Notes under the pieces: model-generated
The model's database searches: none
What the model saw: only the letters and a program-made list of their open reading frames with translations
Told to the model about the DNA's origin: nothing
From: a virus
Lineage: Duplodnaviria; Heunggongvirae; Uroviricota; Caudoviricetes
IMG/VR virus record: IMGVR_UViG_2778261301_000003
Location: 1 to 11,318 of that record
Direction: 5' to 3' (one strand)
Length of the DNA: 11,318 bases
Shown here: positions 3,169 through 9,788 of the stretch, piece after piece
Layout of the letters: every line of letters begins with the position of its first letter
Numbering within the stretch: position 1 is the stretch's first letter
Program-made: the position numbers and the translations under genes

Positions 3169-3885
<717 letters not shown>

Positions 3886-3892
3886 CACGTAA

Positions 3893-4330
3893 ATGATTAA
3901 AGAACGTATTTCTTATATCATTCCGATTGCGATGGATGAAGGCAACCCCGTAACTCCAGTTCTTATCTATGAAATGGATAAAGACTCCCATGAAGTGGAT
4001 CTGTCATTTGGCGCTTTTTTTATCGGCCTTAAGGCTACAAAAAAATATTCCATAGGCATTGAGGTTTTCAATGCTCAAGAAATACCGATACCAATTGACA
4101 CAAAACTGTACTCCAACCATAAGTTTTTTACGGTAGCAGAAGCCAACGATGGAGAAACCATCGTATCAACTTCTATGAGAATTAACTTCCCAAGGGTGAA
4201 AATTATCAAGCCTGGGATATTCGAAGTTAGAGCATCACTGGTTAATCCTGAGAAAGGCGAAGTAATTGATGTAAAAAGTTCGTTTTTTGACGTGAAGATA
4301 ACAGGATCAGTTCGCGATGAGTTTAGATAA
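3893..4330 (+). CDS. Hypothetical soluble protein (145 aa) in the rexA-equivalent position
   Basis: ATG 7 nt after the cI stop with no obvious SD, suggesting coupling to cI translation. No TM segment or signal peptide; hydrophobic/polar alternation suggests a beta-rich fold. Not RexA-like by size (145 vs 279 aa); no recognisable catalytic motif. Confidence 0.6.
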   Translation: MIKERISYIIPIAMDEGNPVTPVLIYEMDKDSHEVDLSFGAFFIGLKATKKYSIGIEVFNAQEIPIPIDTKLYSNHKFFTVAEANDGETIVSTSMRINFPRVKIIKPGIFEVRASLVNPEKGEVIDVKSSFFDVKITGSVRDEFR

Positions 4331-4688
4331 CAAGGTTGCTCAGCTTCGTCCAAATCAAAACATATCTCGCCCAATTGGACACTATTCCACTGATGATGCA
4401 TACTCTCGGCATGGTGGAGGAAACGGCGGAGGTAACATGCTTGAGGCTAGAGTTGCAAAGCTAGAGTCTGATGTTGAATACATCAAGCGCGATCTCGCTG
4501 AGGTAAAGTCAGATATAAAATCTGTTGATTCTCGTCTGTCAGGTATTGAGACAAGCATTAGCTCAGCAAAAACCACCATTAAGGCATCTGCGGTCGTTGT
4601 CAGTTTCGTGTTCGCATTTTGCGCCTACATTTTTGGAAGTTATGTATCCAAAATCCTTGATGCCTTAAACGGACTCGTTCTTAAGTAA
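4317..4688 (+). CDS. Hypothetical tail-anchored membrane protein (123 aa): Gly-rich N-terminus, coiled coil, single C-terminal TM helix
   Basis: ATG at 4317 overlaps the upstream stop (4328-4330). An alternative start at ATG 4437 with GGAGG 4 nt upstream would give 83 aa. Heptad-like segment LEARVAKLESDVEYIKRDLAEVKSDIKSVDSRL, then hydrophobic AVVVSFVFAFCAYIFGSYV. Architecture resembles XhlA-like or holin-like small membrane proteins (from memory, unverified). Confidence 0.6.
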   Translation: MSLDNKVAQLRPNQNISRPIGHYSTDDAYSRHGGGNGGGNMLEARVAKLESDVEYIKRDLAEVKSDIKSVDSRLSGIETSISSAKTTIKASAVVVSFVFAFCAYIFGSYVSKILDALNGLVLK

Positions 4689-4694
4689 CACACA

Positions 4695-4721
4695 ACCCGG
4701 CCTCAGTGCCGGGTTTTCTTT
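4695..4721 (+). terminator. Intrinsic terminator closing the cI operon (t-imm equivalent)
   Basis: Stem ACCCGGC/GCCGGGT (4695-4701 and 4708-4714) with loop CTCAGT, followed by TTTTCTTT. Confidence 0.7.
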
Positions 4722-4872: not shown

Positions 4873-4935
4873 TAACCATCTGCGGTGATAAATTATCTCT
4901 AGCGGTGTTGACACAAATACCACTAGCGGTGATAC
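4873..4935 (+). promoter_or_regulatory. OL operator cluster (OL3, OL2, OL1) with pL promoter reading rightward
   Basis: AACCATCTGCGGTGATA (4873-4889), TATCTCTAGCGGTGTTG (4893-4909) and TACCACTAGCGGTGATA (4917-4933) are lambda-type 17-mers. pL -35 TTGACA (4907-4912) and -10 GATACT (4930-4935), followed by the conserved ACATCAGCAGGACGC start region. Confidence 0.9.
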
Positions 4936-4981
4936 TAAACACATCAGCAGGACGCTGGAAGCCAAACGGAACAGATTGGCA

Positions 4982-5016: not shown

Positions 5017-5135
5017 AAACAGATACCAAACGAGATGGGTTTGGCGGTGATGTGAATTGCAGATGCAACGACAGCAACCAGAAGATCAGCACCTGGCGCA
5101 TCACCACCAAAGCCATTTCACATGAGGAAAACATC

Positions 5136-5444
5136 ATGACGGTAATCGTGTACGGAAAATCAACATTTGCAGGAAATGCCAAAACTCGCCGTCATGAGCG
5201 GCGCAGAAAGCTGGCTATCGAGCGTGATTCCATCTGCAACATCATCGATTCGATCTTCGGCACAGACAGTGAGGAAGATGTTCAGGAAGAACCGAGAAAG
5301 CGTTTAAGTCTTTCTGAAAAAGCAATATCACTCGGCATCATCAGTAAATCAAATACAGATGCGAATGGCGGAAGCGTTTGTTTGCCTGAAGTTGCACTGT
5401 ATGCTGCTGGTTACAGGTCAATGAAATCAATTACGGCGAGATAG
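5136..5444 (+). CDS. N: Antitermination protein N, P22 type (102 aa)
   Basis: N-terminal arginine-rich motif GNAKTRRHERRRKLAIERD matches the P22 N boxB-binding peptide (from memory). Start at ATG 5136 with AGGAA SD; the track's 130-aa ORF from 5052 runs into the nut leader and is rejected. Confidence 0.85.
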   Translation: MTVIVYGKSTFAGNAKTRRHERRRKLAIERDSICNIIDSIFGTDSEEDVQEEPRKRLSLSEKAISLGIISKSNTDANGGSVCLPEVALYAAGYRSMKSITAR

Positions 5445-5446
5445 AA

Positions 5447-5713
5447 ATGACTAGCAAACAAGTATCATATAAATGCTATTGCCCTTTATGTGGAAGAAAA
5501 TTCAGCGCCAAGGCAGCATGGAAGCATATCAATGATTATCATCCAAAAGCATCAGAACGTGAGTTGATGATGATAAGAGATGTAAAACGAGAAAAAATTT
5601 CTTTCGCAACAAAGCCACTAAACGCCAACAAAAACGCAATATTGTATCAAATGCATCGTTCAAGTGGTCCAGATTATTCTGGAGGGCTTCCATCTCTTGG
5701 AAAGAAAAAATAA
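5447..5713 (+). CDS. Small zinc-finger protein (88 aa), C2H2-like
   Basis: Motif C-x2-C-x11-H-x4-H (CPLCGRKFSAKAAWKHINDYH) near the N-terminus; starts 2 nt after the N stop; basic C-terminal tail. Confidence 0.55.
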   Translation: MTSKQVSYKCYCPLCGRKFSAKAAWKHINDYHPKASERELMMIRDVKREKISFATKPLNANKNAILYQMHRSSGPDYSGGLPSLGKKK

Positions 5714-5846: not shown

Positions 5847-6212
5847 ATGGAAGAACAAGCAAACAAGATTCTCGTAGAACTACTGCAAAAAGCCAGTAAT
5901 GGAATAGACGCGGCTGTTTCATTTAGCCAGGCACAGATTCCTGATGTCATCCATCAGCTTTTGATGTGGCACGCCGTATCATCAGCTGGAATTCAGGCTA
6001 TCTGTGTATTGGTGATTATAGCGTGTGTTTATCTGATGATTTTTGCATGGAATAAAGGAGATGATGCAGATATTGTTATTTTATCACTACTTGTCACATC
6101 AGGAATAGCGATTACTTCTATTGTTGTTTTCTTCAATTATTTCGACTGGCTGAAAATTTGGCTTGCTCCAAAACTTTACCTTATCGAATATGCCGCATCA
6201 TTGGTTAAGTAA
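5847..6212 (+). CDS. Small inner-membrane protein (121 aa, two predicted TM helices)
   Basis: GAGGTGAG SD upstream of ATG 5847; hydrophobic segments AVSSAGIQAICVLVIIACVYLMIFAW and IVILSLLVTSGIAITSIVVFFNYF. Confidence 0.6.
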   Translation: MEEQANKILVELLQKASNGIDAAVSFSQAQIPDVIHQLLMWHAVSSAGIQAICVLVIIACVYLMIFAWNKGDDADIVILSLLVTSGIAITSIVVFFNYFDWLKIWLAPKLYLIEYAASLVK

Positions 6213-6265
6213 TTTCATGCCGCATAGTCGGCCTTTATTTTTGGCATAAACAATATGGGGTAAAA

Positions 6266-6592
6266 ATGAAAGTTTTAATGGTTTATGAAAATGTTCCAGA
6301 GTCGACTGAAATCTATATTTTTGATGCCAATGAAGATGAAGTTAACGATTTGAAATTGTCTCACGGCAATTACACAAATGCTAATTGTGATGAAAGTATC
6401 GAAAAAGCACTATCACGTGTTCTTGTCAGAATTAGTGATCCAGAACATTGTGATGATGATTGGCTTTCTTATTGTGGAGCGGTAAAAACTGATGCAGGAA
6501 AATGGAGTAAAAGTAAAGTTGATAACTCAACTCCAATCATTATGAAAGATAGTGATATTGAAATGGTAATAATAACCGGAATGATTATGTAG
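6266..6592 (+). CDS. Hypothetical acidic protein (108 aa)
   Basis: ORF with a G-rich SD; about 21 Asp/Glu versus about 10 Lys/Arg by hand count; AT-rich codon usage typical of moron genes. Confidence 0.5.
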   Translation: MKVLMVYENVPESTEIYIFDANEDEVNDLKLSHGNYTNANCDESIEKALSRVLVRISDPEHCDDDWLSYCGAVKTDAGKWSKSKVDNSTPIIMKDSDIEMVIITGMIM

Positions 6593-6608
6593 GCTGCGAA
6601 TAAGCACT

Positions 6609-6636
6609 GTGTATTCATTCAAACGAGTGAATACAC
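6609..6636 (+). other. Perfect 9-bp inverted repeat (GTGTATTCA-N10-TGAATACAC) in the intergenic region
   Basis: Arms at 6609-6617 and 6628-6636; no U-tract follows. Could be an RNA hairpin (processing site or pause) or a dimeric protein-binding site. Confidence 0.35.
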
Positions 6637-6737
6637 GGAGCAATGTCGCTCGTAACTAAACAGGAGCCGACTTGTTCTGATTATTGGAAATCTTCTTTGC
6701 CCTCCAATGTGAGGGCAATTTTTTTGACGGAGGATAT

Positions 6738-7049
6738 ATGAAATTACGTGTCTGGCATATCCCGCAAGTACCTATGAAGCCGTTCATTGTAGAAGTGGCA
6801 AGTGTTGAAGAGGGTGTTCGCTTGATGGATGCACTGGCTGATTATGACGCCTTTCAGTATGACAACAACATCAAGCCTGACTACTGCAATGCTAACGGCC
6901 TTGAGATGTGGGATGAGAGCCTTACTGATGAAGATTTATCAGAGATGGAGCTTACGGATCGCTGGGTAGATTGGTACAGCGAATGCCAATGTTACGACGA
7001 CCCACGTAAATATATCGAAAGCCTGAAAGAAGAAACCTCAGCAGCCTGA
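6738..7049 (+). CDS. Hypothetical acidic protein (103 aa)
   Basis: Start chosen at ATG 6738 with GGAGG SD (track ORF starts earlier at 6684 without an SD); about 24 acidic versus about 10 basic residues; Cys pairs (CNANG, ECQC). Confidence 0.55.
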   Translation: MKLRVWHIPQVPMKPFIVEVASVEEGVRLMDALADYDAFQYDNNIKPDYCNANGLEMWDESLTDEDLSEMELTDRWVDWYSECQCYDDPRKYIESLKEETSAA

Positions 7050-7084: not shown

Positions 7085-8053
7085 ATGAGTGAAGTAACAG
7101 ACTTAGTTGTTATTGAAAAAGCAAATGCAATGACTGTATTTCAGTCTGCAGACCAGATTGAAGAAATTCTCCAAAAGGTTGAACGTGAAGTTATGTCCTT
7201 TGTGCCTGATATCACAACGGCAAAGGGCAGAAAGGAGATCGCTTCTCTGGCGTATAAAGTTGCGCAGACGAAAACATATCTCGATGGTCTTGGCAAAGAC
7301 CTTGTTGCTGAACTGAAGGAAATTCCAAAGCTAATTGATGCTAACCGCAAGACAGTGCGTGATCGCCTTGATGAGCTGAAAGCCAAGGCGCGCCAGCCTC
7401 TTACTGATTATGAGGAGGAGCAGGCACGGATTAAAGCCGAAGAAGAAGCTAAGGCAGCAGCCGAAGCTCTCGCAAAGCAAATTGAGTCTGACCATGAAAT
7501 AGCGATTTTGATGGATCGCGAATTTGACCGCCAAAGAGAAGAGGCAAGACTCAAAGCGGAGCAGGAAAAGCGAGAGCATGAAGAACGCTTAAAAAGAGAA
7601 GCTGAAGAGAAAGCCAGAGCTGAAGCCGAAGCAAAGGCAAAAGCCGAAATTGAAGCAGCAGCAAGGCGAGAAGCAGAAGCTAAGGCAGCAGCGGAACGTG
7701 CAGAGCGTGAACGTATTGAAGCCGAGCAACGAGCACAGCGCGAAGCAAAAGAGGCAGCAGAACGAGCTGAAAGAGAAAAGCATGCGGCAATTGAAGCAGA
7801 ACGTCGTAAAGCACAGGAGGAGGCTGAACGAATCCGGCGCGAGGCTGAAGCAAAAGAGCAAGCCAGAATAGCAGAAGAAAAAAGAATCAAGGACGAAGAA
7901 GAGCGTAGAGCAAAGGATAAAGCTCACCGGAAAGAAGTAAATAACAAAATACTGGCTGACCTTATCAAGGTTGGCGCATCAGAAGATGTTGCTAAAAATA
8001 TCATAACAGCCATCGTAAAAGGCGAAGTATTCGCAACAAAAATAACCTACTAA
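7085..8053 (+). CDS. Hypothetical protein (322 aa) with a long Ala/Glu/Lys/Arg-rich helical repeat region
   Basis: Strong SD AAGGAGG; N-terminal domain of about 115 aa, a central low-complexity A/E/K/R-rich segment of roughly 170 aa (TolA domain II-like composition), and a C-terminal domain of about 40 aa. Confidence 0.7.
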   Translation: MSEVTDLVVIEKANAMTVFQSADQIEEILQKVEREVMSFVPDITTAKGRKEIASLAYKVAQTKTYLDGLGKDLVAELKEIPKLIDANRKTVRDRLDELKAKARQPLTDYEEEQARIKAEEEAKAAAEALAKQIESDHEIAILMDREFDRQREEARLKAEQEKREHEERLKREAEEKARAEAEAKAKAEIEAAARREAEAKAAAERAERERIEAEQRAQREAKEAAERAEREKHAAIEAERRKAQEEAERIRREAEAKEQARIAEEKRIKDEEERRAKDKAHRKEVNNKILADLIKVGASEDVAKNIITAIVKGEVFATKITY

Positions 8054-8523: not shown

Positions 8524-9204
8524 ATGGGAACTGCGACATTAATACTCGGTGAGTCTGGCACCGGAAAATCAACCAGCATGAGAAATATCAATCCAGAGGA
8601 AGCAATACTTATAAAACCAATAGGCAAGCCGCTTCCATTTAAATCAAAAGACTGGCTGGCATGGGATGCCAGAGCAAAAAAAGGAACCGTAGTTACCACT
8701 GACAAATGGGACGTAATAGTTGCCGTAATTAAGCGTGCTCACGAATACGGGAAAAGAATCGTTATTGTTGATGACTTCCAGTATGTGATGAGCAATGAGT
8801 TTATGCGCCGCTCAGAAGAAAAATCGTTTGATAAATTTACTGAGATAGGCCGCCACGCATGGGAGGTGATTAAGGCTGCACAGGATGCACCTGATGACCT
8901 GAGAGTCTATTTTCTTGCGCACACCGAAGAAACCCCTATGGGGCGCGTGAAAATGAAAACTATCGGCAAAATGCTGGACGAGAAAATCACTGTCGAAGGC
9001 ATGTTTACTATAGTTCTTCGCACTCTTACCCGCGATGACCAGTTCTTTTTCACCACGAAAAACAACGGTGCAGACACTGTTAAATCCCCAATGGGAATGT
9101 TTGATTCCAATGAGATTGATAACGATCTCTCTTTCGTCGATGCCACTGTTTGTGATTACTACGGCATCAATAATGTTCATCAAATTAAGGAAAACGCCGC
9201 ATGA
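8524..9204 (+). CDS. Sak4-like RecA-core ATPase (AAA_24-type), phage recombination protein
   Basis: N-terminal Walker A LILGESGTGKST and Walker B-like IVIVDD, about 226 aa; located where lambda has the Red genes and followed by an SSB-like gene. Confidence 0.6.
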   Translation: MGTATLILGESGTGKSTSMRNINPEEAILIKPIGKPLPFKSKDWLAWDARAKKGTVVTTDKWDVIVAVIKRAHEYGKRIVIVDDFQYVMSNEFMRRSEEKSFDKFTEIGRHAWEVIKAAQDAPDDLRVYFLAHTEETPMGRVKMKTIGKMLDEKITVEGMFTIVLRTLTRDDQFFFTTKNNGADTVKSPMGMFDSNEIDNDLSFVDATVCDYYGINNVHQIKENAA

Positions 9205-9788
9205 GCAACGTGATTTTTACTTATAACGAAGAAGCAGCACTGACCGCAGGGCAAGGTGGTTTTATTAACGAAACTGGCGCTCATATCATTACCATTACTG
9301 AAGCAGAACTAAAGCAATCAGAAAAAGGAGCCAAATTTATTGAGTTTTCTGGCGAATCCGACGACGGACGTAAAATCCAATATCTTAGCGTCTGTGTTCA
9401 GAAAAATGACGGAACGGAAAACAAATTTGGCGCAAATGTCGTTCACGCCATGATGGGGTGTGCCGGGATTGGACAATTAACGCAGCATATGGTTTCCGCC
9501 AGTAAATTTGTTGCTCCTGAGTTTCACGGAAAGAAAATCGGGTTAGTGCTACAGAAAGTATTAACCACAAACAAAAAGACTGGTGCAGACAGTTACCAGA
9601 TGGAAATACGCATCCCGTTTATTGCACAAACAGGCCAAACACTTAAAGAAAAGGCGGAAGGCAAGCAACCAGAAACTATCGCCAACATGGTTTCCAGCCT
9701 CAAAGATAAAGACAATCGCTCTAAAAACGTAAGCCAGAATCATGCAGATGATTATGGTTACAGCCAGAACGATTACCCTCCTTTCTGA
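9201..9788 (+). CDS. Putative ssDNA-binding protein partner of Sak4 (195 aa)
   Basis: ATGA overlap with the upstream gene; acidic C-terminal tail ending ...DDYGYSQNDYPPF, reminiscent of the acidic tails with terminal Phe in SSB and T7 gp2.5. The OB fold is not verifiable by eye. Confidence 0.4.
   Translation: MSNVIFTYNEEAALTAGQGGFINETGAHIITITEAELKQSEKGAKFIEFSGESDDGRKIQYLSVCVQKNDGTENKFGANVVHAMMGCAGIGQLTQHMVSASKFVAPEFHGKKIGLVLQKVLTTNKKTGADSYQMEIRIPFIAQTGQTLKEKAEGKQPETIANMVSSLKDKDNRSKNVSQNHADDYGYSQNDYPPF

Follow-up and report, generated by a model that had tools for sequence, protein, structure and literature searches.

Two small acidic early-left proteins of a lambdoid Escherichia coli phage: an orthologue of P22 gene 17 and a rare lambdoid member of an uncharacterised phage family

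Results

Two unrelated accessory genes in the early-left operon

The window (the whole stretch of 11,318 nucleotides analysed here) carries two small, strongly acidic proteins in its early-left operon, which belong to two unrelated families. Sequence comparison identified the downstream protein, ORF B, as the orthologue of P22 gene 17, an already known gene, and placed the upstream protein, ORF A, as a new and rare lambdoid member of phrog_4658, a known but uncharacterised family. The best overall explanation, which we hold to be reasonably probable, is that both are unrelated accessory cargo genes, ORF B encoding a counter-exclusion inhibitor and ORF A an early binder and neutraliser of another protein. 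A preceding sequence-only reading of the same DNA had pointed out both ORFs and missed the identity of ORF B; we found both of them, on the plus strand, at the positions it gave (6266-6592 and 6738-7049).

The window spans the immunity and early region of an E. coli phage or prophage of the lambdoid type, with the map reversed relative to lambda (Table 1). The best coverage of the window in any E. coli genome or phage record was at most about 55%, and the partial matches are those of an ordinary lambdoid mosaic. The assignment of the two ORFs to the early-left operon was borne out by the gene order on the plus strand, in which cI, a pL-like promoter and N precede both of them. The pL-like promoter was positioned between the cI-side terminator and N, and its consensus match suggests that it is the pL promoter that would drive the operon containing ORF A and ORF B. 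The true start of N is probably the internal Met near 5133. The promoter scan revealed no sigma-70-like promoter directly before ORF A or ORF B.

Several other features of the window were observed. The two genes following cI occupy the lambda rexAB position and form a candidate prophage-expressed defence or exclusion module; the 145-aa protein belongs to phrog_5893, and the 123-aa protein (phrog_6136, with weak XhlA/holin-like matches) has a coiled coil and a C-terminal transmembrane segment. The 88-aa protein has a pI of 9.9 and a C2H2/C2HC-like zinc-finger signature, and its gene starts 3 nt past the N stop codon. The 322-aa protein is highly charged (78 Asp and Glu, 70 Lys and Arg) and equivalent to Sf6 gene 33. 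Its names in RefSeq vary between 'cell envelope biogenesis protein TolA' and 'coiled-coil domain-containing protein', and the phage HF4s record labels it 'similar to phage phi80 Agt; Gam antitoxin protein', so that its function looks unsettled. The 98-aa protein near the end of the window showed 93% identity to P22 Abc2 (anti-RecBCD), and the operon combines a Sak4-type recombination module with this P22-type RecBCD modulator. The genes cIII and kil, carried by other phages before the recombination genes, were not identified within the window, and ral was absent from it.

Table 1. Features of the window, listed from the immunity region to the recombination genes.
Feature	Position	Strand	Evidence or family
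DnaC-like gene, O-like replication gene, then cII and cro		minus	
cI	3172-3885	+	
145-aa ORF and 123-aa ORF after cI	3893-4688	+	
Terminator after the two post-cI genes	4694-4715		
pL-like promoter, TTGACA-17 nt-GATACT	4908-4936	+	promoter scan, 10/12 matches
N antiterminator	5052-5444	+	PF25694 N_peptide, E 1.5e-35, residues 29-130; phrog_271
88-aa basic zinc-finger-like ORF	5447-5713	+	phrog_20899
121-aa membrane ORF	5847-6212	+	phrog_3054
ORF A, 108 aa	6266-6592	+	phrog_4658 (function unknown)
bsq4 boundary sequence and lambda tL2a-type intrinsic terminator	6604-6725	+	
Hairpin 1, 9 bp	6609-6636	+	terminator scan
Terminator stem, followed by T7	6697-6718	+	terminator scan; strong intrinsic terminator
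ORF B, 103 aa	6738-7049	+	PF17420 'superinfection exclusion gp17'; phrog_1510; P22 gene 17 orthologue (by sequence)
322-aa coiled-coil protein	7085-8053	+	phrog_1376
Sak4-like ATPase	8524-9204	+	
SSB-like/DUF669 protein	9201-9788	+	
Abc2 orthologue, 98 aa	9812-10108	+	

Acidity of the two proteins

A hand count had suggested about a two-fold excess of Asp and Glu over Lys and Arg, and calculation confirmed it, giving 21 against 10 residues in ORF A (net charge -11, pI 4.36) and 24 against 9 in ORF B (net charge -15, pI 4.11). No other of the window's 20 plausible genes encodes a protein with so low a pI. Acidity is a conserved trait in each family: the median net charge was -10 in 170 sequences of the ORF A family, 84% of which had a pI below 5, and -14 in 111 sequences of the ORF B family, with 97% below this value. 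By itself, acidity is weak evidence of function, and the description early, acidic and small fits many phage proteins with other roles. A ratio of acidic to basic residues of at least 2 occurred in about 15% of the proxy ORFs of 70-140 aa in the fetched phage loci, a rough figure because this set includes relatives of ORF A and ORF B, and two equally acidic genes side by side would be expected by chance in about 2% of adjacent pairs. The N-termini of the two proteins look alike (MKvLxxYExxPE and MKLRVWHIPQ), and we considered a common ancestry, which was rejected at an hhalign probability of 0.2%.

ORF B is orthologous to P22 gene 17

The start of ORF B was assigned to the ATG at 6738, which is preceded by a GGAGG Shine-Dalgarno sequence. 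A longer version beginning with the TTG at 6684 was discarded, because it would traverse the terminator hairpin and because the alignment with P22 gp17 runs residue for residue from 6738. ORF B matched PF17420 (GP17) over the whole profile (positions 1-98 of 98); the score was 185.2 bits, where the Pfam gathering score is 25, and the E-value 2.3e-55. As evident from the full-length, ungapped alignment, 91 of the 103 residues were identical to those of P22 gp17 (88%), which also has 103 residues, and the identity to the gene 17 product of ST64T was 95%. These matches identify ORF B, at the level of sequence, as the P22 gene 17 orthologue. The remark that neither protein is a lambda early-left gene was correct, yet ORF B is a classical early-left gene of P22. 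The two gp17 proteins are alike in length, acidity and position in the pL operon downstream of the N/24 antiterminator. They differ in host, E. coli for ORF B and Salmonella for P22 gp17, and in neighbours: ORF B follows the bsq4/tL2a element and precedes the 322-aa coiled-coil gene, whereas P22 gene 17 precedes c3 and kil.

The phenotype that links gene 17 to Fels-2 reportedly goes back, according to papers that cite it, to Semerjian, Malloy and Poteete in 1989 (J Mol Biol 207:1). The P22 RefSeq note on gene 17 reads 'allows growth on phage Fels2 lysogen', and the statements on gene 17 in two later papers, citing the 1989 study, describe gp17 as required against the Fels-2 exclusion system (PMC6486243, PMC9409062). 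As far as these statements go, gene 17 is genetically a counter-exclusion gene. The family carries the label 'superinfection exclusion' in Pfam, PHROGs and RefSeq alike, a misleading name that points in the wrong direction, because both the P22 record and the citing papers give growth on a Fels-2 lysogen. This growth phenotype is that of P22 gene 17, to which ORF B is linked by homology.

The gene 17 family was also found in strictly virulent phages (Kuttervirus, Gamaleyavirus, and Nocardia and Mycobacterium phages; records of Bacillus phages matched too), an occurrence that fits a function in the lytic cycle and not a prophage-expressed exclusion. In a 46-member alignment the family core was strongly conserved, with invariant W6, P9, Q10, F16, L33, Y36, D37, F39, Q40, K46, D48, Y49, N51, G54, W76 and W79, many of which are aromatic (W6, F16, Y36, F39, Y49, W76 and W79). 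An acidic loop at residues 59-75 of ORF B is cut to 4-6 residues in many homologues; the family median net charge was -9 in the core and -6 in this variable loop, and both parts are therefore acidic. The AF2 model of ORF B (pLDDT 91.6) predicted a small α+β sandwich with the order β-β-α-β-α-β-α. Our literature search on PF17420, on gene 17 with Fels-1 or Fels-2 and on AbiU with P22 found no mechanistic study.

Cargo genes of Fels-2

In the P2-like prophage Fels-2 (NC_010463) we found two cargo genes after the portal gene, at 22639-25335, the position of the P2 old hotspot. One encodes STM2723.1, a 565-aa protein that matched AbiU in PADLOC (E 2.7e-112) and AIPR PF10592 (E 8.8e-43) and that has been named abiU (PMC3853940). 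The other encodes the unannotated 243-aa protein STM2726, for which no family match was found. Copies of the AIPR gene with about 97% nucleotide identity were found in some E. coli genomes, and an E. coli lambdoid phage could therefore meet the AIPR protein. We propose STM2723.1 as a candidate target of gp17, on the single ground that it is recognisable as defence cargo in Fels-2; STM2726 is an equally open candidate. Both proteins are candidates for the factor behind the classical Fels-2 exclusion of P22 17- mutants.

ORF A belongs to a widespread family with a predicted fold of its own

ORF A matched phrog_4658 over its entire length (residues 1-108 against profile positions 2-109 of 109) with an E-value of 2.4e-38, and the same PHROG was matched by all 67 sampled relatives. 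When 1.84 billion cluster representatives were searched with a profile, 756 matched the family at E <= 1e-3. Many relatives have about 85 residues and are without the central region (roughly residues 57-95). With known members such as Yersinia phage JC221_223, Morganella phage vB_Mm5 MM5_130 and Klebsiella phage RCIP0047_00048, ORF A shares the N-terminal motif MKvLxIYExIPE, the motif HGxYxN and the C-terminal motif IDxVVxTGF. Most known members are in virulent myoviruses, and ORF A is a rare lambdoid copy about 30% identical to them. A tblastn search revealed full-length homologues of about 30% identity in 114 phage records, all virulent or non-lambdoid, among Klebsiella 48-kb myoviruses, Stephanstirmvirinae and T4-like Straboviridae of Enterobacter, Cronobacter, Citrobacter, Yersinia and Morganella. 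A word-indexed protein search gave a few near-identical copies in E. coli prophages and one relative at 82% identity.

Across 67 diverse family members, only P11, N38 and G105 were conserved in at least 90%. H33 and Y36 were variable and the three cysteines were not conserved, and ORF A is therefore unlikely to be an enzyme or an Fe-S protein. The AF2 model (pLDDT 94.4, pTM 0.86) predicted a β-hairpin, three helices and a C-terminal strand. This predicted fold had no analogue among the solved structures in the PDB, and a BFVD fold search with the model matched uncharacterised family members only. Sequence searches for solved relatives, with single sequences and with the 67-member profile, gave nothing below E 0.1. 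Pfam, NCBIfam and PADLOC searches with ORF A and ten distant relatives gave nothing significant apart from a weak NCBIfam ferredoxin match, and PADLOC had no match for ORF B either. We dismissed a plant-type [2Fe-2S] ferredoxin as noise: its E-values were insignificant (0.53 in the PDB, 0.025 in NCBIfam), and in place of the ligand pattern C-x4-C-x2-C...C the protein has three Cys in another spacing, none of them conserved in homologues. No mechanistic study was found in the literature on phrog_4658 and WP_000866358, and the motifs of both ORF A and ORF B were absent from the supplements of an accessory-gene counter-defence screen (PMC12373910).

Genomic contexts of ORF A

The GC content of ORF A is about 33-34%, against a fraction of 0.44-0.49 in its flanks. 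A query comprising ORF A and the adjoining boundary (6200-6740) was covered to at least 80% in only 16 of 5426 complete E. coli genomes, whereas the 3' boundary element alone was present in about 2200 of them. The neighbours of ORF A are variable, with ral, Nmad5 or the 121-aa membrane ORF upstream and gene 17, the coiled-coil gene or cIII downstream, past the boundary element. Two prophages have the order ral - orf - A - cIII, from which it follows that ORF A there occupies the position of P22 gene 17. In Salmonella P22-like phages the 121-aa membrane protein gene, about 97% identical at the nucleotide level and located beside sieB, is directly followed by bsq4/tL2a; relative to these phages, therefore, ORF A is an insertion.

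Outside these genomes, homologues at 48-53% identity were found in IMG/VR lambdoid contigs, one or two genes downstream of the repressor or of an N-like gene. In three Straboviridae lineages a homologue of about 30% identity is flanked by ndd and the holin gene t, in an early part of the genome with many small ORFs. In phi92-like phages (Stephanstirmvirinae; L004 2501-2833 and L010 5877-6212) the homologue lies inside a phage-borne tellurite-resistance-like cluster of TerC, TelA, vWA-TerF and TerD and is adjoined by an RNA ligase gene. On other contigs it adjoins genes for Erf, DNA ligase, polynucleotide kinase and thymidylate synthase. The thread common to these contexts appears to be an early, dispensable and horizontally mobile gene, which suits a counter-defence or host-takeover factor.

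The intergenic bsq4/tL2a element

The span between the two genes (6593-6737) contains hairpin 1, a second small hairpin and the strong terminator, and the element separates ORF A, upstream of tL2a, from gene 17, downstream of it. It showed 97.5% identity to the corresponding stretch of lambda. The homologous stretch is annotated in the Sf6 record as 'bsq4; boundary sequence' and 'terminator, homology to phage lambda; tL2A', and in the HK97 record as 'terminator', so that the element is already known. It is also present in lambda, HK97, HK022, Sf6 and P22. The stems of P22 and of another prophage (L011) differ in sequence and are still complementary, and 13 of 37 predicted pairs showed compensatory changes in the three sequences compared. 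This small alignment suggests a selected RNA or DNA structure, not merely a recombination linker. An Rfam search of the whole window revealed no family at gathering score, and no Rfam family covers the element. A boxA-like CGCTCGTA at 6647 was set aside, as its occurrence is at chance level. Unless a terminator acts earlier, expression of ORF A could precede full N-dependent read-through.

Discussion

The sequence-only reading had suggested that the two proteins may be DNA mimics or inhibitors of host defence. Inhibition of a defence is supported for ORF B through its homology to P22 gp17 and the Fels-2 phenotype, and the case for ORF A is circumstantial. We hypothesise that ORF A is also a defence inhibitor, on the basis of its early operon, the variable slot that it shares with ral and gene 17, the early regions of the virulent phages that carry its relatives and its conserved acidity. 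Ral of lambda and P22 is a small early counter-defence protein whose gene occupies the same variable segment, located between N and tL2a; in several prophages this gene lies directly upstream of ORF A. Ral belongs to an unrelated family (PF11058).

Ocr (T7 gp0.3), ArdA, T4 Arn and lambda Gam are likewise small, strongly acidic and early, and are encoded on phages or other mobile elements; they bind a defence or repair enzyme, and binding of this kind is the working model adopted here for ORF A and ORF B. It is distinctly unlikely that one or both of the proteins are DNA mimics like these four, titrating a DNA-binding defence or repair enzyme such as type I restriction, RecBCD or a nucleoid protein. 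What resembles the mimics is the strong net negative charge, measured from composition (-11 per 108 aa and -15 per 103 aa) and kept across each family, together with an early expression class and a slot shared with the anti-restriction gene ral. The models were compared with Ocr, ArdA, Arn and Gam, and neither resembled these known mimics in fold; sequence similarity was also absent, and the mimic reading gained no positive support. DNA mimics are without a common fold, and a differing fold therefore does not exclude mimicry. A Gam-like role would be less needed because Abc2 is present in the window. It is highly improbable that ORF B, and ORF A by analogy, is a superinfection-exclusion protein expressed from the prophage to block other phages, as the family label in Pfam, PHROGs and RefSeq would have it. 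The label misreads the genetics recorded for P22, both genes sit in the repressor-controlled pL operon with no promoter of their own in the scan, both families are common in strictly virulent phages, and both proteins are devoid of a signal peptide and a transmembrane segment. Proteins of the SieA/SieB type have their own promoter in the repressed prophage and are usually membrane-associated, and neither feature was found for ORF A or ORF B.

For ORF A, a role in host takeover or phage physiology unrelated to immunity is doubtful, though its homologues keep company that could indicate a different role. Such a protein might modulate a nucleic-acid or stress pathway of the host, or it might be an adaptor for phage proteins involved in replication, recombination or RNA repair; this would agree with the ndd region of T4-like phages, among host-shutoff genes, with the tellurite-resistance-like cluster beside RNA ligase in phi92-like phages and with the DNA- and RNA-metabolism neighbours elsewhere. 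The sporadic occurrence of ORF A in E. coli genomes and its variable neighbours are what one expects of dispensable cargo in an arms race and not of a gene for core physiology, and in lambdoid phages its slot is the one common to ral and gene 17.

In the explanation that we prefer, counter-exclusion by ORF B and early binding by ORF A, both genes would be unrelated, interchangeable cargo of a hypervariable accessory slot in the lambdoid pL operon, with the order N, variable genes, bsq4/tL2a, variable genes and recombination genes, and would be transcribed only in lytic growth. ORF B would act on a prophage-encoded factor of abortive infection or exclusion, as its stoichiometric protein inhibitor or as a decoy; the AbiU/AIPR protein at the Fels-2 cargo hotspot is the most concrete candidate for this factor, and gp17 would bind through its invariant aromatic and acidic surface. 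ORF A would be a small non-enzymatic α+β protein without conserved catalytic residues that binds and neutralises a host or prophage protein early in infection, as a counter-defence or host-takeover factor. Lambdoid phages would have acquired it as a low-GC module, whose probable source is virulent enterobacterial phages.

A bolder combined claim, that phrog_4658 is a new and widespread counter-defence class and that gp17 is the first known inhibitor of the AbiU/AIPR protein of a P2-like prophage, is tentative and on present evidence rather unlikely. If neither idea holds, the two genes are nothing more than the usual accessory cargo of a mosaic lambdoid phage. Two hypotheses open to experiment follow from the analysis: gp17 would act against the AbiU/AIPR protein of Fels-2, and the phrog_4658 fold would serve in counter-defence. 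The genetics of gene 17 date back to the 1980s, and the AbiU/AIPR link provides a directly testable pair; if the link is true, gp17 could be the first inhibitor of the AbiU/AIPR Abi family. ORF A points to a phage-only family of considerable size, whose fold is confidently predicted and has no solved relative; the family is found in early regions of Klebsiella, Enterobacter and Cronobacter phages of the therapeutic type and in E. coli prophages. If the counter-defence idea is true, phrog_4658 (at least 756 clusters) would be a counter-defence family common to T4-like, phi92-like and Jedunavirus-like virulent phages and to lambdoid temperate phages, which would have acquired it by mosaic exchange at the bsq4/tL2a boundary, and ORF A as a counter-defence factor would matter for host-range prediction and phage engineering.
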